Virus record (IMG/VR): IMGVR_UViG_2778261088_000006
DNA length: 27,160 bases
Direction: 5' to 3' (one strand)
Source of the DNA: a virus
Lineage: Duplodnaviria; Heunggongvirae; Uroviricota; Caudoviricetes
Shown here: positions 1-18,700 of the stretch, one piece after another
Numbering within the stretch: position 1 is the stretch's first letter
How the letters are laid out: each line of letters opens with the position of its first letter
Position numbers and translations under genes: made by a program
Notes under the pieces: generated by a model
Database searches by the model: none
Told to the model about the DNA's origin: nothing
The model's input: only the letters and a program-made list of their open reading frames with translations

Positions 1-77
1 GGTAAGCAGAGTTTTTGAAATGTAAGGCCTTTGAATAAGACAAAAGGCTGCCTCATCGCTAACTTTGCAACAGTGCC
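1..77 (+). mobile_element. IS26 right end (partial; element continues left of the window): 3' end of tnp26 plus 14-bp terminal inverted repeat
   Basis: Bases 2-25 encode ...VSRVFEM-stop, the C-terminus of the IS26 transposase as I recall it; bases 64-77 TTTGCAACAGTGCC are the reverse complement of the IS26 terminal IR GGCACTGTTGCAAA; the intervening bases also match my memory of the IS26 end. Not database-verified. Confidence 0.85.
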
Positions 78-185
78 ATCATAGATATTGTCCCGTTCGA
101 CACCTGCGGCGCGCAAGGCGTCGTGCTGCAGGTCGAGAGACTGCGAGCCATCGGCTTTGGAGACGCGGGCATATCCGATCAGCAT
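78..185 (-). pseudogene. tnpR: 5' fragment (36 codons) of a serine-recombinase resolvase gene, truncated by IS26
   Basis: Reverse complement from 185 reads ATG CTG ATC GGA TAT GCC CGC GTC TCC... = MLIGYARVSKADGSQSLDLQHDALRAAGVERDNIYD, a typical resolvase/invertase N-terminus with the catalytic-serine motif YARVS. The frame runs directly into the IS26 IR at 77. Divergent from tnpA as in Tn3-family elements. Confidence 0.7.
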
Positions 186-310
186 GTATCACAAACGTTG
201 GTTTGAGGCGGCGCTTCGGCCACGATTGCATTGACCTCTGGAAGTGTATCTCAACCAGCTTCATAAACAAAGCGTCTTGAACGCTATCAGATTTTGAAAA
301 AGGAACATGT
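186..310. promoter_or_regulatory. tnpR-tnpA divergent intergenic region, expected to hold the res site and divergent promoters
   Basis: 125-bp spacer between divergently oriented tnpR (start 185, minus) and tnpA (start 311, plus). Tn3-family elements with this layout place res here. Individual res subsites were not delimited. Confidence 0.4.
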
Positions 311-3196
311 ATGCCGCGTCGCGTCACTCTAACCGATCGGCAGAAAGACGCGCTGTTGCGCTTGCCGACTTCACAGACGGATTTGCTCAAGCACTATACG
401 CTGAGTGATGAAGACCTTGGGCATATCAGGCTGCGTCGGCGCGCTCACAACAGGTTCGGCTTCGCCCTGCAATTGTGTGTCCTGCGCTATCCCGGCCGGG
501 TGCTGGCTCCAGGCGAACTGATCCCTGCAGAGGTCATCGAATTTATCGGAGCGCAGCTTGGCCTGGGTGCCGACGATCTCGTAGACTATGCTGCCCGCGA
601 GGAAACACGGCACGAGCATCTTGCCGAGTTACGGGGGCTCTACGGCTTCCGCACCTTCTCCGGACGTGGTGCGAGCGAGCTGAAGGAATGGTTGTTCCGA
701 GAAGCCGAGATGGCGGTGTCGAACGAGGATATCGCCCGTCGCTTCGTAGCCGAGTGCCGACGCACCCGCACTGTCCTTCCCGCGACATCCACGATCGAGC
801 GGCTTTGTGCCGCGGCTCTCGTCGATGCCGAGCGACGCATCGAGACGAGGATCGCCAGTCGGCTGCCTATGTCGATCCGAGAACAGTTGCTGGCATTGCT
901 CGAGGAGACGGCTGATGATCGGGTGACCCGTTTTGTGTGGCTGCGCCAGTTCGAGCCTGGCTCGAACTCTTCGTCGGCCAACCGGCTGCTCGACCGGCTC
1001 GAATATCTGCAACGCATCGATCTCCCCGAGGATCTGCTTGCCGGCGTTCCTGCCCATCGGGTGACTCGTCTGCGCAGGCAGGGTGAACGGTATTATGCCG
1101 ACGGCATGCGCGATCTCCCGGAGGACAGGCGGCTTGCGATCTTGGCTGTTTGCGTCTCGGAATGGCAGGCGATGTTGGCCGACGCAGTGGTCGAAACCCA
1201 CGACCGGATCGTCGGCCGTCTCTACCGTGCTTCGGAGCGTATTTGCCATGCAAAGGTCGCAGACGAAGCGGGGGTGGTGCGTGACACCCTGAAATCCTTC
1301 GCCGAGATCGGGGGCGCCCTGGTCGATGCACAGGATGATGGCCAGCCGCTGGGCGATGTCATCGCGAGTGGGTCAGGGTGGGACGGCTTAAAAACCCTTG
1401 TTGCAATGGCAACCAGGCTGACCGCCACCATGGCCGACGATCCGCTCAATCATGTGCTCGACGGTTATCACCGCTTCCGCCGATACGCTCCACGCATGTT
1501 GCGCCTGCTCGATCTGCGAGCTGCGCCCGTTGCACTGCCGCTTCTGGAAGCGGTGACGGCCCTTCGTACCGGTTTGAACGATGCCGCGATGACCAGCTTC
1601 TTGCGGCCCAGCTCGAAATGGCATCGCCACCTTCGGGCCCAGAGGGCTGGCGACGCTCGCCTATGGGAGATCGCGGTGCTGTTCCATCTGCGCGATGCGT
1701 TCCGCTCCGGAGATGTCTGGCTTACTAGGTCCCGGCGCTATGGCGATCTGAAACACGCACTCGTTCCGGCACAATCCATCGCGGAAGGCGGTCGTCTCGC
1801 TGTGCCATTGCGGCCGGAGGAATGGCTGGCAGACCGGCAAGCTCGCCTCGACATGCGGTTGCGCGAGCTTGGCCGTGCCGCTCGCGCAGGCACGATCCCG
1901 GGCGGGTCGATTGAAAACGGCGTTCTGCATATCGAGAAACTCGAAGCCGCCGCGCCGACAGGCGCCGAAGATCTGGTGCTCGATCTCTACAAGCAGATCC
2001 CGCCCACGCGCATCACCGATCTCCTGCTGGAGGTGGATGCGGCGACCGGCTTCACCGAAGCGTTCACCCATCTGCGCACAGGAGCACCCTGCGCTGACCG
2101 GATCGGGCTAATGAACGTTATCTTGGCGGAAGGGATCAACCTCGGCTTGCGCAAAATGGCGGATGCGACAAACACCCACACCTTCTGGGAATTGATCCGC
2201 ATTGGACGGTGGCATGTCGAGGGCGAAGCCTATGACCGGGCGCTGGCCATGGTGGTCGAGGCACAGGCAGCGTTACCCATGGCCCGGTTCTGGGGCATGG
2301 GCACGTCGGCTTCGAGCGACGGACAGTTCTTCGTCGCTACAGAGCAAGGTGAGGCCATGAACCTGGTCAACGCGAAATATGGCAATACCCCGGGCCTGAA
2401 AGCCTATAGCCACGTCTCCGACCAATATGCGCCGTTCGCAACCCAGGTGATTCCTGCAACGGCAAGCGAAGCGCCTTACATCCTCGATGGCCTGCTGATG
2501 AACGATGCTGGACGCCATATCCGCGAGCAGTTCACCGACACGGGCGGCTTCACCGATCACGTCTTTGCCGCATGTGCCATTCTCGGCTACCGGTTCGCTC
2601 CGCGCATCCGCGACCTGCCATCCAAACGGCTCTACGCGTTCAATCCGTCGGCCGCCCCGGCGCACCTGCGAGCGTTGATCGGCGGAAAGGTCAACCAAGC
2701 CATGATCGAGCGCAATTGGCCCGACATCCTGCGCATCGCCGCCACCATTGCTGCCGGGACCGTCGCGCCAAGCCAGATTCTGCGGAAACTCGCCTCCTAT
2801 CCGCGGCAGAACGAGCTCGCGACAGCCCTGCGGGAAGTCGGTCGCGTCGAGCGCACCCTGTTCATGATCGACTGGATTCTGGATGCCGAACTCCAACGGC
2901 GTGCCCAGATCGGGCTCAACAAAGGCGAAGCTCATCATGCGCTGAAGCGGGCAATCAGCTTCCACCGCCGCGGTGAAATCCGCGACCGTTCCGCCGAAGG
3001 CCAGCATTACCGCATCGCCGGCATGAATCTGCTCGCCGCCATCATCATCTTCTGGAACACCATGAAGCTCGGCGAGGTCGTTGCAAACCAGAAACGCGAT
3101 GGAAAGCTGCTATCGCCCGATCTCTTGGCCCATGTTTCGCCGCTCGGATGGGAACACATCAATCTCACCGGAGAATATCGCTGGCCAAAGCCTTAG
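311..3196 (+). CDS. tnpA: Tn3-family transposase, 961 aa, apparently intact
   Basis: Uninterrupted 961-aa ORF in GC-rich DNA, N-terminus MPRRVTLTDRQKDALLRLP, size and composition typical of Tn3-family TnpA. ATG at 311 follows an AAGGA ribosome-binding site. The stop codon lies inside the terminal IR, as is usual in this family. Many opposite-strand ORFs here are GC artefacts. Confidence 0.9.
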   Translation: MPRRVTLTDRQKDALLRLPTSQTDLLKHYTLSDEDLGHIRLRRRAHNRFGFALQLCVLRYPGRVLAPGELIPAEVIEFIGAQLGLGADDLVDYAAREETRHEHLAELRGLYGFRTFSGRGASELKEWLFREAEMAVSNEDIARRFVAECRRTRTVLPATSTIERLCAAALVDAERRIETRIASRLPMSIREQLLALLEETADDRVTRFVWLRQFEPGSNSSSANRLLDRLEYLQRIDLPEDLLAGVPAHRVTRLRRQGERYYADGMRDLPEDRRLAILAVCVSEWQAMLADAVVETHDRIVGRLYRASERICHAKVADEAGVVRDTLKSFAEIGGALVDAQDDGQPLGDVIASGSGWDGLKTLVAMATRLTATMADDPLNHVLDGYHRFRRYAPRMLRLLDLRAAPVALPLLEAVTALRTGLNDAAMTSFLRPSSKWHRHLRAQRAGDARLWEIAVLFHLRDAFRSGDVWLTRSRRYGDLKHALVPAQSIAEGGRLAVPLRPEEWLADRQARLDMRLRELGRAARAGTIPGGSIENGVLHIEKLEAAAPTGAEDLVLDLYKQIPPTRITDLLLEVDAATGFTEAFTHLRTGAPCADRIGLMNVILAEGINLGLRKMADATNTHTFWELIRIGRWHVEGEAYDRALAMVVEAQAALPMARFWGMGTSASSDGQFFVATEQGEAMNLVNAKYGNTPGLKAYSHVSDQYAPFATQVIPATASEAPYILDGLLMNDAGRHIREQFTDTGGFTDHVFAACAILGYRFAPRIRDLPSKRLYAFNPSAAPAHLRALIGGKVNQAMIERNWPDILRIAATIAAGTVAPSQILRKLASYPRQNELATALREVGRVERTLFMIDWILDAELQRRAQIGLNKGEAHHALKRAISFHRRGEIRDRSAEGQHYRIAGMNLLAAIIIFWNTMKLGEVVANQKRDGKLLSPDLLAHVSPLGWEHINLTGEYRWPKP

Positions 3197-3229
3197 CGTA
3201 GGATTCCGCCCCCTCCCGCAAACGACCCC
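3192..3229. repeat. 38-bp Tn3-family terminal inverted repeat (right end of transposon)
   Basis: Reverse complement of 3192-3229 is GGGGTCGTTTGCGGGAGGGGGCGGAATCCTACGCTAAG: outer GGGG and inner ACGCTAAG are the conserved ends of Tn3-family 38-bp IRs. GC-rich sequence stops and AT-rich DNA begins just beyond 3229. The partner IR is not in the window. Confidence 0.55.
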
Positions 3230-3564
3230 AGAAAGCAATCAAGTTACCGCGCAAGGAATCCGGCAAATACATTCTCCACCAAAGCATCTTCGATTCCGAA
3301 CACGATAAAAAAGGCGATGAATTTTTCAACATCAACTGGAGCGAAATAACGACAGAGCATGTTCTGACGTTACTATGTTGCTTTGCGACGGAATACAACA
3401 ACGTTGCCAGCGGCGACTACATCAGGGCAATGGCTGGAGAAGTTGAGGACCGCCAAGAACCATCGTTACTAAGTCCACTGATTAACATAATTCTGGGCAC
3501 CCAGATACTGGAACAAAAAAAAGTGCCGAAAGGGGTATTAACAGGCAAGCATAATTATTTTTAA
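3230..3564 (+). pseudogene. 3' remnant (about 111 codons, no start codon) of a gene interrupted by the transposon insertion
   Basis: Frame beginning at 3230 is open to TAA at 3562-3564 in AT-rich DNA where stops are otherwise frequent; it has no plausible start and begins exactly at the transposon IR. Translation ...GDEFFNINWSEITTEHVLTLLCCFATEYNNVASGDYIRAMAGEVEDRQEPSLLSPLINIILGTQILEQKKVPKGVLTGKHNYF. Same strand as the downstream RelA/SpoT gene. Product not recognised. Confidence 0.35.
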
Positions 3565-3657
3565 CAATTATATGCAGTAATTTTGTGGTTATATTCTCCA
3601 TTGATTTTCTAACCGCTTTATCATTAGATGTAACAGCATGTAAATCATTTAAAATGG

Positions 3658-4794
3658 ATGAAAGCAATGGGGAATGAAGTTTATCAAAGTCAAAAATGCA
3701 AGTTGAAATATTCAAAATCTCAAATTGATAGGGCTGCTCAATTGATAAGGCACGGGTGTAGTGACGAAGAAAGGCAGCAAGCTATTGAAATGATACAAAA
3801 TTTCCGTGAGCTGCATCTTTATCCATTAATGCTCATGAAAAATCATTTAGCAAGAGCAGCTGCTAAGGTTGACAAAGACAAAAAGATTCTCGTTGCAAGA
3901 AGACTTAAGCGACTTTCTACCATAATAGATAAACTAGAGCGTCCTAGTCTTGATGGAGGCAGAACTAGCAATGCAATTAAATTAACACGGATGCAGGACG
4001 TTGGCGGATGTAGGGCCATTGTCAGAAACTTAGACCAGTTGATACAGCTAAAGGAACGTCTTTTAAAAAGCAAATCTGTTCATAGGATTGTTAAAGAGTA
4101 TGATTATCTTACTCCCAAAGACAGCGGCTATAGTGGAATCCACCTTGCATACAGTTGCTTCGATCAGAAAGAGGAGCAATATCCGTGGCGAAAAACAAAG
4201 ATTGAGATACAGTTAAGAACTCAATTGCAGCATGCTTGGGCTACTAGCCTTGAAATAATTGATACCCTTGAAGGTATCAAGCTGAAAACTTCAAGTGAAG
4301 GGCATCCAGAATGGAGACGATTTTTCTATCTAGCCGGATGTCTTGTAGCGCACGACGAAAAAGCCTGCACTCTTGATGAGCTAGTTGTATCTCAGTATGA
4401 AGGCGAGCTTAAAGAGCTGGAACGGACTTTATCTGTACGGAGGAAACTAAGCACATACACCCTCGCCTTAAATTTAACTTCTGACGCGAATTTGATTAAG
4501 AAGTTGCCAAAAAATCATAAGGGGCATTACTTAGTAACAATGAGAAATGCAGAAAACAAGCCCAATACAAAAAACAAAAAAATGTTCCTAGTGTCTGTTC
4601 GCGCATTTAAAACAAAAGAAGCAGATGAAGCCCTTGAGGCCTTAAATAAAGACGATTCTGATCCTAATGTATTGATATCTGTTCTCGTTGCTACAGATAA
4701 CATTAAGTCACTAAAAAAAGCCTACCCCAACTATTTTGGCTCAACAAACCAGTTTACAAAATTCTTAGATAAGCATCTTCGTAACGAAGGATAG
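3658..4794 (+). CDS. RelA/SpoT-domain nucleotidyltransferase with C-terminal extension; candidate fused toxSAS (CapRel-like) defence protein
   Basis: 378-aa ORF with the RelA/SpoT synthetase motifs in order: RLKRLSTIIDKLER (aa 81-94), DVGGCRAIV (114-122), KDSGYSGIHL (154-163), EIQLRTQLQHAWA (183-195). About 180 residues follow the catalytic core. An alternative start ATG lies at 3667. Confidence 0.8.
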   Translation: MKAMGNEVYQSQKCKLKYSKSQIDRAAQLIRHGCSDEERQQAIEMIQNFRELHLYPLMLMKNHLARAAAKVDKDKKILVARRLKRLSTIIDKLERPSLDGGRTSNAIKLTRMQDVGGCRAIVRNLDQLIQLKERLLKSKSVHRIVKEYDYLTPKDSGYSGIHLAYSCFDQKEEQYPWRKTKIEIQLRTQLQHAWATSLEIIDTLEGIKLKTSSEGHPEWRRFFYLAGCLVAHDEKACTLDELVVSQYEGELKELERTLSVRRKLSTYTLALNLTSDANLIKKLPKNHKGHYLVTMRNAENKPNTKNKKMFLVSVRAFKTKEADEALEALNKDDSDPNVLISVLVATDNIKSLKKAYPNYFGSTNQFTKFLDKHLRNEG

Positions 4795-4800
4795 TTGCTT

Positions 4801-4829
4801 AATTTTGCCCGGTAATTCCGGGCAAAATT
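4801..4829. terminator. Perfect hairpin between convergent genes; probable bidirectional terminator
   Basis: AATTTTGCCCGG-TAATT-CCGGGCAAAATT: 12-bp perfect stem with 5-nt loop, 7 nt after the RelA/SpoT stop and immediately after the stop of the minus-strand gene at 4831. Confidence 0.45.
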
Positions 4830-4830
4830 G

Positions 4831-5079
4831 TCAATCTGCATTCAGGAGCAATGCGTTATCTATGATGATCTGCTCCCATTCTTCGAATGCCCGGTCGCGG
4901 ACGCCCTGGGGAACGCTGTTAGTTTTGAAATCGACGACCGTACGCCATTTCCCGTCCGGACGGTACATGCGCAGAGCTTTACTTCCCCCTTCCCTGCGCA
5001 CCTCAACGTTATGCTTGTCAGCAAACTCTTGTAATGCTCGTAGCGTCCCATGCTTTACTGTGTAGTATCGCTTTTTCAA
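4831..5079 (-). CDS. lxc: Small protein, 82 aa; position matches P1 Lxc
   Basis: ORF overlapping the upstream ulx-like gene by 4 nt (ATGA) and lying downstream of darB on the same strand, the order I recall for P1 (lxc, ulx, darB). Symbol assigned by synteny only. Confidence 0.55.
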   Translation of the reverse strand: MKKRYYTVKHGTLRALQEFADKHNVEVRREGGSKALRMYRPDGKWRTVVDFKTNSVPQGVRDRAFEEWEQIIIDNALLLNAD

Positions 5080-5516
5080 GTTTTCTCTCCAGCCTGTGCC
5101 AAGGCTTCAACTTCCAAATCGTAAGACTCAAACTCATAGTCCTGGTCGTCAACCTCTTCAGGCACTGGCAGTAAATGCCAGGCTGAGTATATCTGACCAT
5201 TATCAAAACGCTCCTGGCTGTAGAGCGTCGCGGCTATGAGCGTCAGCGCCGGACGGTCATAACGGTAAATTTTGCGAACGTCACGGTCAACGAGACGACC
5301 GAAATTACCATAACCGCGCTCCAGTAATAATTTTTTAATTTCCGGCCAGTATGGACCATAGCTGCGGTACAGGCGGGGATTTTTCAGTAATCGCCCGCGT
5401 AGCCCTGACAGGAAGAAATCAACGTATTCGTCTTCTGTCTTTCCTAACAACGCTGTACGGAGTACCGCCTCAAGATATGTTTTATTCGGTTTTATTGTAT
5501 CAGATAGTGTGGCCAT
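5076..5516 (-). CDS. ulx: 146-aa protein; position matches P1 Ulx
   Basis: ORF immediately downstream of darB on the minus strand (darB stop 5550, this start 5516). Symbol assigned by synteny only. Confidence 0.55.
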   Translation of the reverse strand: MATLSDTIKPNKTYLEAVLRTALLGKTEDEYVDFFLSGLRGRLLKNPRLYRSYGPYWPEIKKLLLERGYGNFGRLVDRDVRKIYRYDRPALTLIAATLYSQERFDNGQIYSAWHLLPVPEEVDDQDYEFESYDLEVEALAQAGEKT

Positions 5517-5549
5517 ATTATGCGACGCCCGGCGAACCGGGCGCTCCTG

Positions 5550-8500
5550 TTATGCGTATTGTTGGATGACGGCCAGAACGTCCGCCACGTTGTGTTTTGT
5601 CTCGATAATCCACCAGTTACCCGGGAAATCGCTGTTCTTCGCCTTCGCTGGCAGCCAGCGAGCGCCGAATTTCGCCTTGATTGCGTCTTTCGCACGGAAA
5701 AGAACGCCTTTCATGCCTGAGGCTTCCTGAAGCCCAAATACCTCGCCAGCGGCGAATTTTGGTGCGTACATCATCTTCAGGTCGGCGGTGGATACGCGAT
5801 AATTCAGACCAAGAGACTGAGCTATGCTGGTGGCATCACCCTGTATTGATGATAACTCTTCTTGTTTCTCGTTTCTGGCGGCAATCTCTTCCTCCGTGAT
5901 GTTGCCAAGGGCCAGGTTTATCCGATCAGCGTCGGCCTGTTTCTCTTCATCGGTGCGCCCGGCAAGAACCGTGTTAATTCTCTGCAATATCTCCACATGA
6001 TTCTTGCGCATGCTGAGCAATTCCGGCGTAACCTCGTTAAGATCCACCAGCCCAAGGATGGCAAGGTCGGAAAACATTGATACCAGGTTGTAGGTCATGC
6101 GATAGCTGAGTTGACCATAGGCTGATGGCAACTGCACCGCATCCATTTTATAGGCATCCATAAATTTAGAGCCGTCGTTTACGACATCCGCAATTGCCGG
6201 TGTGATTTTTCCTGTGGTGGCGGCCTCCCTGATTGCTGTTACCCACGATTGAGTCAGCGCGGAAACTGCATGATTCAGATTGGCTTTGCGTTCTGCTGCA
6301 ATGCGCGCGCTTGCAGCGTCCATTGACTGTTTGATCTCGTCTTTATTGCTGTAAATGCCAATGGTGCCAAACTGTGCTGTGGTGATCTCATAATCTGACG
6401 CCCGGAACTCATTGGTACCGAAAATGGCATTGGTGACTTCAAGTTCAGAATCCCCGTTACGAGTAGCCCCCTGGCTTGTTTTTTCCGGCATTCTGGCGAT
6501 CGCATCCGCTATTTTCTCCTGAATTGCTTCAGGGGATAGCGTATCTCCGTATGACGCGATTACATCGCCATAATTGGAGCCAAACAGTTCAACCAGGAAT
6601 GTTTCTGCCGAACGGATCTGGCGGTTATTCCCTTCCGACATCATACCAAGCACCCATTTTGCAATTGACGACTTCAGCGCGCCGTCACGGCGATCCGGGT
6701 AAACCGCATGCTTCAGTGGGTCCGTATAGGTACCAACAAAATCGATGCTATAGCCTGACTCTGTAGTCTGAACGCCGTATGAGTCAGTGATTTTGATCAT
6801 GCCGCGCTGCTGGAAACGGTAGAAATCGTCACAGGAAATGATGTCGTTAATCCCGGCGATGGAGACGCCACCACTGATTTTCTGCATAACAGCATCTTCA
6901 TCGGGAGTTACATCCACCTGTTTATCCAGCGTCTTCACATCCCAGTTACCCGATTTGGTGCCTCTTAAGGTAAAGATGATCTCCACGTCTGCGCGCTGGC
7001 TGTCGAAGTCCAACGACTTAATGCGAACGATATCACCGGCACAATCGTAGTATTGGCCTACACGCCATGAGCGATCGCCGATAACAAGGAACTCATTCGC
7101 ATGGTTAACCAGATCAGGATCAACATCCAGAATGCCTTTATTTATTGCATCCTCCACCAGCGGGCGCAGGCGTTTGATATCCGTCGCGGCCTTCTGAGTA
7201 CGGTTCAATAATTTCTCATAGCGGGAGATGGCCTGAGAGATATTAGCCTTGCGCTGAATGGCGCTTTTCAACGACGCGCGATACTGTGCTAACAACGTAC
7301 GGTCTGTGTGATGGACGCTACCCCAGCGGGCTTTCCAGTCTGCGTTATCAGCTGCTTTGGCCATTACCGCCTGTTTGAATTTAGCTACCTCGGCGGTGGT
7401 CTTTTCAAGTTCCGCTTTGCTTCGCTTTAATTCAGCGGTAAGTACCTCCACATCCTCGCCAGCTGCGTGCTGCGCCTTGATGTAATTCTGAAGGTCGATA
7501 GTAGCCTGTTCTTTCTGGCGAGCGCGTTTCGCAGCTTTCGCCTTATCCATTTGAACCTGCATCATTGCCAGACGTTCGCCGTCATCCTTCGCGGTATACA
7601 TCTGCATTTCGATCATGTCATTGGCGTCGGCGTTCTCCATTTCCGACTTATCTGAACGGAGGATATCGGAGATCCAGCCTGCTTTACGCTTCAGCGTCTT
7701 CAATCGGTATTCATCGAAAGACCCCTTGCCGCAGTAGTAGTGAACGCGAACGCTTGCACGGTTGGAGCCAACTCGAGCACCGCGACCGTTACGCTGTGCG
7801 ATACTGGCTGGTGTCCATGGCAACGTCAGATGATGGATGTCAGTCGTTCCTCGATGCAGGTTGATACCCACCTCTGCCTTTTTGTTGCAGATGATGATCG
7901 GAGTCCGGCCCTCCTGGAAGTCGGCTGCAATCTTTTCCAGACCGCCCAACGACATTTCATTCTGCTGCGCGATATAGGCGTCATACAGAGCCATTTGCTC
8001 GTTGTATTTCGCTATCTGTGCATCTGTTGGTTCATCCGGTAACTCTTTCGGCGGTTTAACCGCTTTCAGTTTCTTACCGGTTTTACCTGCCTCGGCAACC
8101 GTCTGAGCATTCAGGATCCCCACCTTTGAAGGTTCAAGGTTAAGAGCATTGCAGATAATGCGCTTGAGCTTCTGGTGCTGCGTTTTTTCGTCCGTGAAGA
8201 TGATTTGCTTACCTTCCGGGAAAAACTCCTTCAGCGTGGCGATCAGCTTCACGTATTTGGGCGTAACGGGGTGAGTTACAGTCTGTTCGTCAATGCCAAA
8301 CTTGGCCAAGCGCTTATTCACTTCCTGCTCGAACGCTTCCGGAACCTGCAACTGAATAAACTCGCCCTTATCTATCAGGGAGTATTGCGATTGCTGCGTG
8401 ATTGAATCATCACTGTCGTCGTCTTCGCTGGTGGCTTGTTTGGGCAAACTGTCCGCCAGCTGCTGCACCGCATCGGCGTACTCCGGCAGGAAACGATAGG

Positions 8501-11500
8501 TGATCCGGCGATAGTACAGGTCCATGTCAGTACATACGCGGTCCATATCCCTGATTATTGAGAAGATCGGACGGGCTTTCTCGTGCTCAATCACTCCGTC
8601 TTCATCGACCGAGGTCGTTACGCCATTGTTGGCTTTGGCCGCCGCTTCCGCCTGCTGACGCAATTCTTCATACGCCGCCAGTTGTTCTTCAGTAAGTGGT
8701 GCATCCTGCTGGTGTTCGTCCAGCTCCGGGATCTCCACGGTATCCTTAACGTCTTCCGCCGTTTTAAGCGTTGTCCAGCGATGGAATATGCCGCGCAGCG
8801 CATCAAGGTTTTCAAAGCCCACCAGCGCCATTTTTTCTTCAACTTCACCGCTGATTTTCTGTACCGTTTCCAGCCTGGTCTTGCCGAAGAATTTAACGAA
8901 GTCATCAGGACCGTAGATCCCCATCTTCTGCCAGTATTCCTTCGGCAGAACATGAGAAAGCATGTTGTATGCATCGATCGGGGTGTTAACGACTGGCGTT
9001 GCAGTCAGGAGAACCGGTCCACGCCCACCATTCTTTTTCATCAGGTACGCGTTTTTGATTGCCATATCTCGCGCCGATTGCGCCACCGCGCTGGTGGGCA
9101 GATAGGCCAGCTGTGACGCTTCGCGACCATTTTTATAGCTATTGCGGTAGTTGTGGCCTTCGTCAGCAATCACGCTGTCGAAGCCCATATCCTCAAAGTA
9201 CGGATACTTCTCTGCTTTTTCGGTACCGGTATCTGAATACTCCGACAATACCCGGCGACGCGCCGCCTCTTTGCGATGGGAATCGGAGTCCATTGCGCTG
9301 GCCACACGCCCGGCAGCAACGAAGTCATAAAGCATGTCTTGTGCATGCTCATCTACGGTGTCATCACGTAGCGGAATGCGGGCGTATTGTTCTTTGGTAA
9401 ACACGACTGCACGGTAGTTTGAGTGCGGGATCGCGTTCATCCGCGCCGTGATAGTGGCTTCATCTGCCAGCTTAAGGGCATCGCGCATAACGGGAGTGCC
9501 ATCTGCACCAACGACAGGTTTACCGTTCTCATCGAGCACCGGCACCTGGCGAATCTGATCGCCATCCATCAGCACATCAAGACCGACGAACAGGTAGTTA
9601 CTGAATGCCTCTTCACTCAGAAACTCTTTTGCTTCGTAATACCAGTTTTCCAGCACTGATTTAGGCACTACATACGCAGTACGGGTGGAACGACCGTTCT
9701 CATAGTTGAACGCCTCAAGCGCCAGCGCGGTCGTGGTTTTACCCAGCCCGGTACCGAAGCCCAGGATGCCGCGCCCATCTTCGGACAGTCGGCGCACCTC
9801 GCTATTCTGGTAATCAAATGGCTGTCGCTTACCGCTTAATCCCTTCAACCCAAGCGGATCGCCAGAGTGTTCATACGGGATATTGCTATTGAAAACATCG
9901 TTGTATTTGGCAACCAGCTCATCGTAGCGATCGTGCGTCTTGATCCACTTATTGAACTGGTCCTCAAGCAGTGCCATCTGCTCGCGGTAGCCGTTCGCCG
10001 TCGCGCTATCTTTGCCACCGATACGCGCACCATTGAGATACTTTTCCAGCTGTGCCGGGAACCCGGTCGCGTTTTCACCTGATTTACGGTCCCACTCGTA
10101 GCGGATCTCGCCTGTTTCTTTATCCTTGCGCTGGACGACACCGTATCGGTGCCCGACGAACAGACCATCACCACCGTGATAGGTGTCAGAAACCATTTCG
10201 TCGCCTTCCAGCTGCACTGACTGCACATAGCGCAGATCCGGATAGCCGTTTTCCTGCAAAAACTCCAGAATGACGGAGCGGTCGAACCAACGGCTATTGA
10301 GCTTAAAGCGGATATTCTCTGCTGGCGTCTTGATGCGCTTCTCTTCGATCGCTGCCAGCTGATTAAGGACGTTGTTCTTTACTGGACCGTCGGGGAGTGT
10401 GGCAAGGAATTCCTGTTTTGGAGCCACTATCTCGTTAATGTCGCCGCTGGTGGCGCGGGCGAACGGAACAATCCCGCCATACGGTGAAACCGCAATACCA
10501 GGGGTGCTGGCCAATAAATTAAGCAACTCTTCATCACTGGCTGGCAGTTCGCCGGTAAACGCAAGGCGGAAATCATCGAGCTGGATTGGATCGCGGGTAA
10601 GATCGCTATAGAGATAACGCAGGGTGTCCTGATAGCTGGTGGAGTCATAACTGGCGCTGGAATCATGCGTAACCAGCTTTCCTGCCAGCTCGTCAGAAAT
10701 AGTGCCATCCAGCTTAATTGCACCACGGAAAGCAAACCAGGAGCGCGCACCGCTTCCCGATAATTTAGCTATCGGACCGCGACCGGGGTTACCAAAACGG
10801 TCAATCTCTGCCTGCAAACGGGACACCAGAGAAAGGCGCTGTTGTTCGATTTGTTCAGCACTATGCCCGGCGGCCTTCATGTCCTGATATTCAATTAACA
10901 TCCGGCCAATCATCGCCCCGCGATACAAGCGTTCACGGTATTTTTCAGGCTGGCTGTTAATCCAGTCCACCAGCTGCACCATATCGTCGCTGATTGATGT
11001 GGTGTACTTATCGCGGACATTTGCCATCTGGGTAAATGTCATGCCGAGACGGCCTTCTGTTGTAGTCAGGTTACGCTGAAGAGCCTCCCAGCTATCCGCG
11101 CCATAACTGGCAGCATCGATCTTAAGTTCCTTCCCGGCATCAGCTTCAATCCAGCGACCACCAGCATATTTTTGCCATACGCCATTAATCAGGCGCATTT
11201 CCCCTTCACCAACAACGTCTGCGGTCGGTGACGGTTCAGCCATATCGAGCAAAGACCAGTCGATACGGCTTTCGAAACGATGAATCAGCTTCGCTTTAAG
11301 AGACTGGTTATCAATCTGACCGTCGGCACGAACCTCAATACGCCCCTGGAAGCCCTTTTCCTGGGTGCCATGAACAAACCGGCGGCCATCCTTTTCAAAC
11401 CACTTGCCAGAAATAAACGTTGGCCAAAGCACATTTGCCGATTCAAGAGTGCTTTCATCCACCAGGGGGATTTTCTCAGCCATCTCTGCCGGATGTTTGC

Positions 11501-12317
11501 GCATCAGCACCACATCTACGACCGTACTGGTCCCGTTTGCGTCAAAAGTACCGGTAGGCAGGCGGTGGGCACCAAGAAATTCAGCTTTCCGTGATAGGCG
11601 CAGGCGTAACCGCTTCATGTTTGAACCTGAAACAATGGACGGCGGCACAATCACACACATGAATCCGCCAGGCTTTATCTTGTCCAGCATGCGGAGCATG
11701 AAGTAAGAACCCATGTCCGTTTCTTCTGCGTAAGGCTTATCGATGTTGCGTGTGTTATCACGACCACCGAACGGAACGTTACCCACAACATGGTCGAATG
11801 AATCGTTAGGCGTGCTTACAGCCAGTTGTTCGAACGGGGAAATCTGTACGCTGTCTTCCGGATGTAACAGCTGGTTTATACGACCGGAAACACTGCTGAT
11901 CTCAGTCGCGGTCATCACCGTACCAACCGGTTTTGTCTCATTAAAAACGCCGGTGCCCGCCGATGGTTCCAGAGTGTTACCTACGTCCGCGCCATAGAGC
12001 TTCATGATCTCCCAGACGCCTTCAGCAATAGGCTTTGGTGTGTAATATTCGGAGACGGACCCGCCAATGCCGCCTTCACCAGTGTACCCGGCCAGGATCT
12101 GGCGCTGTTCATCTGTCAGTGTCGCGCCGTCCACCAGCGAATTAAGCAAATCTATCGCCTTCTGATTCGCCTCCCGGCGCAGTCGGTCATAGCTTTTGCC
12201 TTCCACCTTTTCCACGCCGTATTTAATCGGCGCTCGGTGAGATGTTATTGCCCTAATGTATTTCAATATTTCGCTGACACTTGAACAGCGAAACACCCCC
12301 ATAGATAGCTTGTTCAT
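5550..12317 (-). CDS. darB: Giant 2255-aa methyltransferase-helicase fusion; P1 DarB-like antirestriction protein
   Basis: Single 6.8-kb ORF. N-terminal N6-adenine methyltransferase motifs (LEPSAGTGVF SAM-binding, VVGNVPFGG catalytic). Central SF2 helicase motifs (GFGTGLGKTT Walker A, VIADEGHNYRN DExH box, LLTATPVVN motif III, QRNGRGAR motif VI). Length and architecture match P1 DarB as I recall it; portal, protease, lyz and ssb follow in the P1 order. Confidence 0.88.
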   Translation of the reverse strand: MNKLSMGVFRCSSVSEILKYIRAITSHRAPIKYGVEKVEGKSYDRLRREANQKAIDLLNSLVDGATLTDEQRQILAGYTGEGGIGGSVSEYYTPKPIAEGVWEIMKLYGADVGNTLEPSAGTGVFNETKPVGTVMTATEISSVSGRINQLLHPEDSVQISPFEQLAVSTPNDSFDHVVGNVPFGGRDNTRNIDKPYAEETDMGSYFMLRMLDKIKPGGFMCVIVPPSIVSGSNMKRLRLRLSRKAEFLGAHRLPTGTFDANGTSTVVDVVLMRKHPAEMAEKIPLVDESTLESANVLWPTFISGKWFEKDGRRFVHGTQEKGFQGRIEVRADGQIDNQSLKAKLIHRFESRIDWSLLDMAEPSPTADVVGEGEMRLINGVWQKYAGGRWIEADAGKELKIDAASYGADSWEALQRNLTTTEGRLGMTFTQMANVRDKYTTSISDDMVQLVDWINSQPEKYRERLYRGAMIGRMLIEYQDMKAAGHSAEQIEQQRLSLVSRLQAEIDRFGNPGRGPIAKLSGSGARSWFAFRGAIKLDGTISDELAGKLVTHDSSASYDSTSYQDTLRYLYSDLTRDPIQLDDFRLAFTGELPASDEELLNLLASTPGIAVSPYGGIVPFARATSGDINEIVAPKQEFLATLPDGPVKNNVLNQLAAIEEKRIKTPAENIRFKLNSRWFDRSVILEFLQENGYPDLRYVQSVQLEGDEMVSDTYHGGDGLFVGHRYGVVQRKDKETGEIRYEWDRKSGENATGFPAQLEKYLNGARIGGKDSATANGYREQMALLEDQFNKWIKTHDRYDELVAKYNDVFNSNIPYEHSGDPLGLKGLSGKRQPFDYQNSEVRRLSEDGRGILGFGTGLGKTTTALALEAFNYENGRSTRTAYVVPKSVLENWYYEAKEFLSEEAFSNYLFVGLDVLMDGDQIRQVPVLDENGKPVVGADGTPVMRDALKLADEATITARMNAIPHSNYRAVVFTKEQYARIPLRDDTVDEHAQDMLYDFVAAGRVASAMDSDSHRKEAARRRVLSEYSDTGTEKAEKYPYFEDMGFDSVIADEGHNYRNSYKNGREASQLAYLPTSAVAQSARDMAIKNAYLMKKNGGRGPVLLTATPVVNTPIDAYNMLSHVLPKEYWQKMGIYGPDDFVKFFGKTRLETVQKISGEVEEKMALVGFENLDALRGIFHRWTTLKTAEDVKDTVEIPELDEHQQDAPLTEEQLAAYEELRQQAEAAAKANNGVTTSVDEDGVIEHEKARPIFSIIRDMDRVCTDMDLYYRRITYRFLPEYADAVQQLADSLPKQATSEDDDSDDSITQQSQYSLIDKGEFIQLQVPEAFEQEVNKRLAKFGIDEQTVTHPVTPKYVKLIATLKEFFPEGKQIIFTDEKTQHQKLKRIICNALNLEPSKVGILNAQTVAEAGKTGKKLKAVKPPKELPDEPTDAQIAKYNEQMALYDAYIAQQNEMSLGGLEKIAADFQEGRTPIIICNKKAEVGINLHRGTTDIHHLTLPWTPASIAQRNGRGARVGSNRASVRVHYYCGKGSFDEYRLKTLKRKAGWISDILRSDKSEMENADANDMIEMQMYTAKDDGERLAMMQVQMDKAKAAKRARQKEQATIDLQNYIKAQHAAGEDVEVLTAELKRSKAELEKTTAEVAKFKQAVMAKAADNADWKARWGSVHHTDRTLLAQYRASLKSAIQRKANISQAISRYEKLLNRTQKAATDIKRLRPLVEDAINKGILDVDPDLVNHANEFLVIGDRSWRVGQYYDCAGDIVRIKSLDFDSQRADVEIIFTLRGTKSGNWDVKTLDKQVDVTPDEDAVMQKISGGVSIAGINDIISCDDFYRFQQRGMIKITDSYGVQTTESGYSIDFVGTYTDPLKHAVYPDRRDGALKSSIAKWVLGMMSEGNNRQIRSAETFLVELFGSNYGDVIASYGDTLSPEAIQEKIADAIARMPEKTSQGATRNGDSELEVTNAIFGTNEFRASDYEITTAQFGTIGIYSNKDEIKQSMDAASARIAAERKANLNHAVSALTQSWVTAIREAATTGKITPAIADVVNDGSKFMDAYKMDAVQLPSAYGQLSYRMTYNLVSMFSDLAILGLVDLNEVTPELLSMRKNHVEILQRINTVLAGRTDEEKQADADRINLALGNITEEEIAARNEKQEELSSIQGDATSIAQSLGLNYRVSTADLKMMYAPKFAAGEVFGLQEASGMKGVLFRAKDAIKAKFGARWLPAKAKNSDFPGNWWIIETKHNVADVLAVIQQYA

Positions 12318-12369
12318 TGGTAATCCTTAACAAGTGACTAGTGTTAAATTCCGTTAAAACACGATGCGA

Positions 12370-15114
<2,745 letters not shown>

Positions 15115-16818: not shown

Positions 16819-17613
16819 ATGGCAGCACAAAATACTAAAACCATTCAATACCGCCTACGTAATGGCCAGAGTGTCGAAGTGACCATCAATAATGATGGAG
16901 TGCCAGGCGAAAAGGTTTCTATCTCTGATCTGGCTATCGAAAAAACCATCATGTGCCACCTTGGCTTTACTGAAGAAGTGAGCAAAAAGCATGGTGTAGC
17001 TATCTGGCGAACAATGGATACTGGCATGCGCAGATTCATTACCGCTCGTACCCCAGGTATGACCATGATGGACCTCATGCAGATTGCACCGCTGTTTGAG
17101 TGTGAACCTTTGGATGTATTCAGCAATCCAGCTATCTGCCAGCAGTTATATGGTGAGATGAAACTCGCTGTTACCCCCATTGTGCTGCATGAAGGATCGC
17201 TTGCTGGCGTATGGAAAGTAGAGCGAATTTCAAGCTACATGCCCTTCCACATCCATGTCAACGGCGTAATCGCAGGTGAAAATCAACCTGTTTCAGTTAC
17301 AAAGTCAGACCTCAAGCGCGCAATTCTTGAAGCAAGTTGTCGAGTTATCGGCCTTGGCAAACAGTCTTATGTTTCCTTCCCGGCTGGCCCTGAAGGCCCG
17401 GCAGAAATTCTGATTATGGATGCCGATCTGCTCTGGCAAATACAGTTTCTGATTGGCAAAAGCATCATCCGCGCTGAAGAACTCGATCAGTACATTACCT
17501 GCACGATGACAGATGAAGTCAAAAGTGTGGCTATAGCCAAGGCCCGGAACCTGTGTCGTGCTGCATTAACAGAACTGCAAGAAAACACCACGGAAGAGGT
17601 GGAAAGTGACTAA
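16819..17613 (+). CDS. Hypothetical protein, 264 aa; first gene of an unassigned two-gene operon
   Basis: ATG preceded by GAGAAAAG; clean ORF; its stop overlaps the start of the next gene. No motif recognised. Confidence 0.6.
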   Translation: MAAQNTKTIQYRLRNGQSVEVTINNDGVPGEKVSISDLAIEKTIMCHLGFTEEVSKKHGVAIWRTMDTGMRRFITARTPGMTMMDLMQIAPLFECEPLDVFSNPAICQQLYGEMKLAVTPIVLHEGSLAGVWKVERISSYMPFHIHVNGVIAGENQPVSVTKSDLKRAILEASCRVIGLGKQSYVSFPAGPEGPAEILIMDADLLWQIQFLIGKSIIRAEELDQYITCTMTDEVKSVAIAKARNLCRAALTELQENTTEEVESD

Positions 17614-18700
17614 TCGTATACAGAATGAACCTGCCTGGTTAGCACTGATAGAACAGTATAAAGACAATTGGGAACTGGCAGCGAAAGAGTTGCTTGATAT
17701 TGAGTTAACACCTCATCAAGCAAAAATTATTAACGCGATAAAGAACACCGGAGCCAAAGTCACTGCCACCACACCACATGGTATTGGGGAAACCTCTATT
17801 GTGGCAGTGATTAGCATCCTGCAAACAATACTGTATTCGTGTTCCCGTACAGTGGTTGTTTCTCCTGCTATTAACGATAGTCGAAAAACAATAATTGACT
17901 ATATGTTCCGTTATTGGGAGCGAGTTACCCAAAAACACCCTTTTCTTGGCAATCATTTCAGAATGCACCCTGACAAAGGGTTGGTGCATATCAGTGAAAT
18001 ATGGGGATGCGTCTATATAACCTATTGTCTGAATAACGAAGTGTCTCTGGCTGGTTTTACTGGACCGCACGATCTTTTCATCGTTATTAACTCGGCGGAA
18101 ATCAGCGATCGCGCTCATGCAGTGATAACTGGCAATTTAACCAATTATGACTCGCGCCTGCTGTTGCTGTCGAAACCATCGGAACGCGAGAAAGGGTACT
18201 TTTATGATTCGCATCACCGGTTGGCCCATAGTAAAAACAATCCTGCTGGTTTTTTCACGGCGATAACTCTAAACACAGAGGATTCACCTCTCGTTTCTGA
18301 AGCATATCTTGAATTCAAAGCCAAAGAGTTTGGTGGGCGCAATAGCGATGAATATCGCCGATTGATCTTGGGGAAATTTCCCGGGATTCGGGAGTTGATG
18401 GAAAAGTCATCTGTTCCCCGTAATATGCACTTCACAATGACTGACGGTAGTAAATGGGTAGTGCCTACGATCGTGATCGCCAAACACCATGCGAAACATC
18501 ACGCTCAAAAACACAACTCCAGCACATTAGACTGGCTGAAGGCCTATACAATACCGTTATTCTCGGCAAACCATAACGCTATAGCTGAATGGGCTAAACA
18601 AATCCCCTGGCAGGATGTGGCTGAAGAGGCATTTGTCGAAAAACCACCAAGAGATTTGCACGAGCACTGTTGGCTGACATCAGAAAAGAGCTTCTCGTGA
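17606..18700 (+). CDS. Hypothetical protein, 364 aa, with degenerate P-loop-like and Walker-B-like segments
   Basis: GTG start overlapping the upstream stop by 8 nt, preceded by GGAAGAGGTGG. Contains TTPHGIGETS (P-loop-like but with E where the lysine is expected) and DLFIVINSAE about 90 residues later; His-rich stretch HHAKHHAQKH. Confidence 0.6.
   Translation: MTNRIQNEPAWLALIEQYKDNWELAAKELLDIELTPHQAKIINAIKNTGAKVTATTPHGIGETSIVAVISILQTILYSCSRTVVVSPAINDSRKTIIDYMFRYWERVTQKHPFLGNHFRMHPDKGLVHISEIWGCVYITYCLNNEVSLAGFTGPHDLFIVINSAEISDRAHAVITGNLTNYDSRLLLLSKPSEREKGYFYDSHHRLAHSKNNPAGFFTAITLNTEDSPLVSEAYLEFKAKEFGGRNSDEYRRLILGKFPGIRELMEKSSVPRNMHFTMTDGSKWVVPTIVIAKHHAKHHAQKHNSSTLDWLKAYTIPLFSANHNAIAEWAKQIPWQDVAEEAFVEKPPRDLHEHCWLTSEKSFS

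Follow-up and report, generated by a model that had tools for sequence, protein, structure and literature searches.

CapRelSJ46, from Salmonella phage SJ46, is a fused toxin-antitoxin and gives defence by itself: its C-terminal domain restrains an N-terminal tRNA-pyrophosphorylating toxin and frees that toxin on binding a phage major capsid protein (Zhang et al. 2022; PMC9712102). The CapRel homologues of Enterobacter and Klebsiella are likewise active alone, and anti-phage activity triggered by phage proteins has been described for CapRelSJ46, CapRelEbc, CapRelKp and CapRelEcHT (PMC9712102). The CapRelSJ46 constructs comprised the ORF with 100–200 bp of upstream DNA in promoter-less pBR322, and the SJ46 gBlock begins directly past the stop codon of mat, holding the intergenic spacer and no mat sequence (PMC9712102). 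Since the active construct carries only this spacer and the ORF, CapRelSJ46 works without mat sequence. Two-gene toxSAS systems are also known, among them PhRel/ATphRel of mycobacteriophage Phrann (cited in PMC9712102), in which a RelA/SpoT-type toxin gene stands beside a small co-oriented frame.

The stretch of DNA analysed here (27,160 nucleotides; IMG/VR virus record IMGVR_UViG_2778261088_000006; hereafter the window) contains a RelA/SpoT-type gene preceded, on the same (+) strand, by an open frame at 3230–3564. The frame comprises 110 codons followed by a TAA at 3562–3564; its first full codon lies at 3232, positions 3230–3231 being the final two bases of a split CAG codon, and its translation reads KAIKLPRKESGKY...GKHNYF. 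An in-frame TAG at 3199–3201, within the inverted repeat of a transposon, is its upstream limit, and translation of the + frames revealed no ATG, GTG or TTG in this frame upstream of an ATG at 3430. A first-pass annotation of the same DNA had reported a start-less frame beginning at the outer end of the transposon repeat, and this description holds, with 110 codons plus a stop following a repeat whose last base is 3229. The annotation had also placed the stop 94 bp before a co-oriented RelA/SpoT gene; the strand is correct, and the gap measures 93 nt to an ATG at 3658 or 102 nt to one at 3667. The statement that both genes share the same AT-rich DNA is accurate only for the end of the frame. 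The G+C content of 3230–3480 is 46%, resembling P1 backbone (47–52%), and AT-rich DNA is confined to the final 84 nt of the frame (34.5%), the spacer that follows (28%) and the RelA/SpoT gene (39%).

We identified the truncated gene by comparison with P1-like elements. A megablast search with 3230–3660 returned the gene annotated as mat, or maturation control protein, in P1, P7, SJ46, RCS47 and 681 plasmid records, and alignment with intact genes placed the break between nt 307 and 308 of the 642 nt of mat. The full-length gene sought in P1-like genomes is mat, and the remnant represents the 3′ 335 nt, or 52%, of its 213 codons (nt 308–642; codons 103–213 plus the stop). All 335 nt are identical to the intact annotated mat genes of three relatives, L006, L012 and L013 (0 differences, 100%); the frame is therefore not a chance one, and since it shows no decay the insertion is recent. 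At the protein level the 110 residues match positions 104–212 of the 212 in PHROG 1837 (E = 3e-53), and a homology search with the remnant protein recovered only P1-type Mat, mostly as partial proteins and without Pfam domains. From the breakpoint onward the surroundings are equally familiar: over about 11.6 kb (3225–14794) the window is 99.99% identical to L006, where the gene order is ref-mat-capRel-lxc-ulx-darB, and the remnant occupies the same backbone position, upstream of a cargo slot and lxc-ulx-darB, as mat in SJ46, pE148-2 and L004–L013.

Compared with mat of P1 and P1-like phage-plasmids (P1_gp006; PHROG 1837), the first 280 nt of the remnant are 92% identical in DNA to P1, and reading frame, stop position and location upstream of lxc-ulx-darB all agree, but the remnant lacks codons 1–102, the start codon and the Pmat/LPmat/C1-operator region, all three elements of which are annotated 5′ of mat in the P1 record. 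The missing 5′ 307 nt are absent from the whole window, and the Pmat/LPmat region was not retained with the remnant, as the match begins only at mat nt 308. With neither a start codon nor Pmat/LPmat, the remnant would make no Mat protein. On the strength of these alignments we regard it as a pseudogene fragment and would label it accordingly.

The 5′ side of the junction belongs to a Tn3-family transposon. The window starts inside IS26, positions 1–77 being an exact match to the IS26 terminus, ending GGCACTGTTGCAAA. The next segment, 78–185 (−), holds the 5′ 36 codons of a Tn5393-type tnpR cut by IS26; its reverse complement reads MLIGYARVSKADGSQSLDLQHDALRAAGVERDNIYD. An intact tnpA (311–3196, +) encodes a 961-aa transposase with Pfam domains DUF4158 and DDE_Tnp_Tn3 (E = 1e-143) and is transcribed towards the remnant, and the terminal part of the inverted repeat lies at 3192–3229, so that a DDE_Tnp_Tn3 transposase and a terminal repeat ending GGGG are both present. 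Positions 77–3229 match the Tn5393-type element of plasmid R64 at 99.97% (1 mismatch in 3153 nt), the match starting inside the recombinase CDS and stopping at 3229. An identical terminus, ...CGCAAACGACCCC, abuts unrelated DNA in five other records, and this, together with the end of the R64 match, identifies 3229 as the last base of the inverted repeat. The CC at 3228–3229 also fits intact mat (...GAACGCC|AGAAAGC) as well as the transposon end, leaving a 2-nt ambiguity in the junction as read from sequence alone.

The element in R64 is of the Tn5393 type (Chiou and Jones 1993), Tn5393 being the strA-strB transposon of the Tn3 family. The copy in the window shares its 961-aa transposase, divergent resolvase gene and identical terminal repeat, but everything past tnpR codon 36 has been removed by IS26 and only the tnpA end is left. 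No partner inverted repeat was found in window positions 1–5600, because IS26 cut the transposon at 77/78, and the window holds no resistance gene; the other end of the insertion lies outside it. The Tn3-family element in the window is thus a transposon remnant, tnpA end only. The proposal that the frame represents the 3′ end of a gene split by a Tn3-family insertion and IS26 agrees with the intact mat alignment, the R64 match and the IS26 cut at 77/78. In R64 itself (L098), the Tn5393 repeat has its last 37 bp in two tandem copies (6114–6200), and the flank that follows shares 12 nt (AGAAAGCAATCA) with the mat flank at window positions 3230–3241. We found no similarity between the two flanks beyond these 12 nt, and the identity is an unexplained coincidence, due to chance or to target preference.

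The gene downstream of the remnant is intact and encodes a 375-aa homologue of CapRel, a fused toxSAS toxin-antitoxin defence protein (3667–4794, +). The ORF aligns with CapRelSJ46 (PDB 7ZTB) at E = 5e-186 over residues 1–370 of 373, without large gaps and including the C-terminal domain; the SGYSGIH motif with the equivalent of the catalytic Tyr155 is kept, and the product is further matched by Pfam RelA_SpoT (E = 3e-12) and PADLOC PDC-S33. Two in-frame ATGs three codons apart, at 3658 and 3667, could serve as the start. We favour 3667, the fourth residue of the ORF, since residue 1 of CapRelSJ46 aligns there and relatives are annotated from that codon; an out-of-frame ATG at 3654 leads to a stop after 7 codons. 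Besides the end-to-end alignment and the Tyr155 motif, the gene shares with CapRelSJ46 its place in a P1-like element, in the slot that separates mat from lxc, the differences lying in the protein, which is about 75% identical, and in the spacer upstream. With the two-gene toxSAS systems it has in common a RelA/SpoT-type toxin gene beside a small co-oriented frame, but here that frame is part of an unrelated gene of the phage backbone, and one polypeptide holds both toxin and antitoxin. By analogy with CapRelSJ46, the RelA/SpoT gene of the window should be a self-contained CapRel that needs no partner.

Within the assembly collection, 586 blocks list the identical CapRel protein. We also considered whether the window allele is the published CapRelEcHT, and this was ruled out by differences in both sequence and upstream context. 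In pE148-2 (L001), the closest PLSDB relative with an intact mat, capRel is split by ISKpn26 (6438–8765); the defence gene is thus also a target of mobile elements in that lineage.

The first-pass annotation had raised the possibility that the RelA/SpoT gene had lost its promoter together with its upstream partner. The spacer between mat and capRel (3565–3666, +) is intact, with 102 of 102 positions identical to L001, L006, L012 and L013. Compared with the spacer tested from SJ46, it is 67% identical (76/113), 10 nt shorter and without the SJ46 hairpin. A consensus promoter scan of 3150–4900 returned fewer promoter-like sites than shuffled sequences and none in the spacer, and the RNA fold of the spacer did not surpass those of shuffles (z = −0.5). 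By eye, a TTGATT at 3601–3606, kept in SJ46, is followed 17 nt later by a poor −10, and as a guess this pair could be the capRel promoter. Because the homologous SJ46 spacer sufficed for functional expression in a promoter-less vector, and because the spacer is complete here, the suspected promoter loss is probably unfounded; we infer that the capRel promoter lies within 3565–3666. No + strand terminator was predicted between tnpA and capRel, including the gap between mat and capRel. Read-through from the transposase gene may therefore add to capRel transcription, and some co-transcription of mat and capRel is possible in intact relatives of this allele.

To the right of capRel the window returns to P1 backbone, with lxc (4831–5079, −) and ulx (5076–5516, −) in the positions and sizes annotated in SJ46 and RCS47, and these two genes bound the cargo slot on its far side. 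We surveyed the contents of the slot in 80 mat loci from IMG/VR (L018–L097). The mat-lxc interval fell into about eleven classes: it is empty (30–40 bp) in 10 loci, holds CapRel, as one of two alleles, in 12 and EcoP1-type res/mod in 9, and in most of the others is occupied by other, mostly defence-like genes. In 68 of the 80 loci there is a mat gene and no CapRel, and mat is full length (213 aa) in 78. Named elements give the same picture. P1 has res/mod, on the opposite strand, next to mat, RCS47 has lxc immediately after it, and JL22 and Ro157c2YLVW carry other genes there, without CapRel. Slot occupants that match defence families, in addition to these, are a SIR2/ThsA-like protein, JukA, PDC-S31 and PDC-S34; Mat, by comparison, matched no defence family in PADLOC. 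On this survey, the mat-lxc slot appears to be a cargo hotspot of which mat forms the conserved left border.

Several occupants of the slot deserve mention in their own right. Loci L021, L026, L040, L058, L073, L082, L088 and L096 carry a 434-aa SIR2/ThsA-like protein (PDC-S25), a 3.6-kb JukA block, and PDC-S31 and PDC-S34 candidates. Slot proteins of 202, 346 and 169 aa have no PADLOC match and could be unrecognised defence genes.

The final ~23 residues of Mat differ by cargo class across L018–L097, with length and several positions kept (...VP.G.LTGK.N..). Since this tail and the fall in G+C content over 3480–3564 (46% to 34.5%) both track the cargo class, a cassette recombination boundary probably lies inside the 3′ end of mat, and we read the association between tail and cargo as linkage rather than function. 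A functional alternative is that the tail is tuned to the cargo, Mat, a late protein, interacting with the element's own defence gene or shielding the element from it, for example by preventing P1's own capsid from setting off CapRel. If so, truncation of mat would alter the behaviour of CapRel. We consider this highly improbable: linkage to cargo is the only observation in its favour, and the published construct without mat speaks against a requirement for Mat.

Taken together, we assign a probability of roughly 0.93 to the reading in which the frame at 3230–3564 is the 3′ 52% of mat, a pseudogene left by insertion of a Tn5393-type transposon that IS26 subsequently cut, and in which its neighbour is a single-gene CapRel carried as cargo and not a partner. 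The transposon would have inserted between mat nt 307 and 308, and IS26 would later have cut it within tnpR. Since then the mat remnant would have been carried as passive DNA, possibly transcribed by read-through from tnpA, while capRel has kept its whole upstream spacer and presumably its own promoter. Mat function, perhaps with virion production, would have been lost, and capRel should still be expressed. A search of PLSDB, complete E. coli genomes, GenBank phages, IMG/VR, GTDB species genomes and JGI metagenomes did not recover the exact junction, which is a private allele of a familiar type of event.

The first-pass annotation had suggested a different relationship, in which the locus may once have been a two-gene system and the RelA/SpoT gene is now without its partner, to which the remnant belonged, and possibly without its promoter; such a partner might be, for instance, an antitoxin or a regulator. 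Both genes do read in the same direction across a gap of about 100 nt in which no terminator is predicted, an intact mat immediately precedes the gene in 10 of the 10 listed places of the identical CapRel protein, and the C-terminal tail of Mat varies with cargo class. Against these points, full-length mat is found just as well beside an empty slot, res/mod and many other cargos, the great majority of surveyed mat loci being without CapRel, and in intact relatives the sequence of the remnant closes mat, which belongs to the P1 backbone and occurs irrespective of the gene that follows it. CapRel, moreover, has its own antitoxin domain, the active CapRelSJ46 construct contains no mat sequence, the Enterobacter and Klebsiella homologues work alone, and Mat resembles no known defence family. 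A two-gene origin is largely refuted by these data, and we give it very little credence. Equally little weight attaches to the idea that the remnant still yields a functional product, either a 44-aa C-terminal Mat peptide from the ATG at 3430 or a read-through fusion with the transposon. In its favour, the frame is unbroken and does not differ from the functional allele, a 44-codon ORF spans 3430–3564, and tnpA is transcribed towards it with no + strand terminator predicted. A fusion is countered by tnpA being in a different frame and ending at 3196, and by the want of any start codon between the TAG at 3199–3201 and 3430; a recent insertion accounts for the match to intact alleles, and there is no sign that the final 44 residues form an independent unit.

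How the junction itself arose is less certain than what it joins. We infer direct transposition into mat, but a secondary event, in which an adjacent deletion or recombination mediated by IS26 or the transposon eliminated the 5′ portion of mat, perhaps along with ref, c8 and cre, is a possibility that we rate as unlikely while taking it seriously. IS26 has already cut this very transposon, the 5′ part of mat is absent from the window, no record with the reciprocal junction was found, and the 12 nt shared by the mat and R64 flanks are odd. The break nonetheless coincides exactly with the terminal base of the transposon, as in junctions made by a transposase. An adjacent deletion of the Tn3-family kind would give the same junction, and it would bear only on what became of the 5′ part of mat, leaving the identity of the remnant as it is.

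Disruption of mat is found in other elements as well. A different Tn3-family transposon follows mat nt 453 in L105 (5001–5576), and an IS end follows nt 461 in L103 (5001–5583) and L104, where the truncated protein belongs to a cluster of 235 sequences; this IS is presumably IS2. Both the inserted element and its position differ from those in the window. Just 5′ of an intact mat, SJ46 (L003) carries a Tn1721-type Tn3-family transposon (2101–5445) and L012 a Tn3-family transposon with a HepT/MNT pair (3971–8860), each replacing or displacing ref. The ref-mat area is a recurrent landing place for transposons. Elsewhere in the window, two ORFs of 264 and 364 aa without Pfam or PADLOC matches lie between ssb and ddrB (16819–18700, +). 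The gene content here differs among relatives, with a HipA-like kinase in L007 and other genes in L009, and the interval looks like a second variable slot.

With the remnant assigned to a dead P1 backbone gene and the RelA/SpoT gene to a self-contained CapRel, the arrangement is an ordinary one, and mat and capRel are both already known. Its significance is mainly one of annotation: the remnant is a pseudogene fragment of mat, and its intact neighbour a CapRel-type defence gene with no need of a partner. The likely consequence of the insertion is the loss of Mat, and possibly of virion production, and not the loss of the defence gene. What is said here of Mat function follows record annotation and PMC10695390. 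Older literature counts Mat among the essential proteins of P1, although CRISPRi knockdown of mat gave an efficiency of plating of 0.28 (PMC10695390). As a phage, this P1-like, resistance-associated element may thus be defective, having ceased to form infectious particles, and may yet still protect its host through CapRel. Surveys of P1-like phage-plasmids have described the gain of IS26 and transposon cargo and the decay of some elements into plain plasmids, and a possible phage defect combined with a retained CapRel would fit this published picture.
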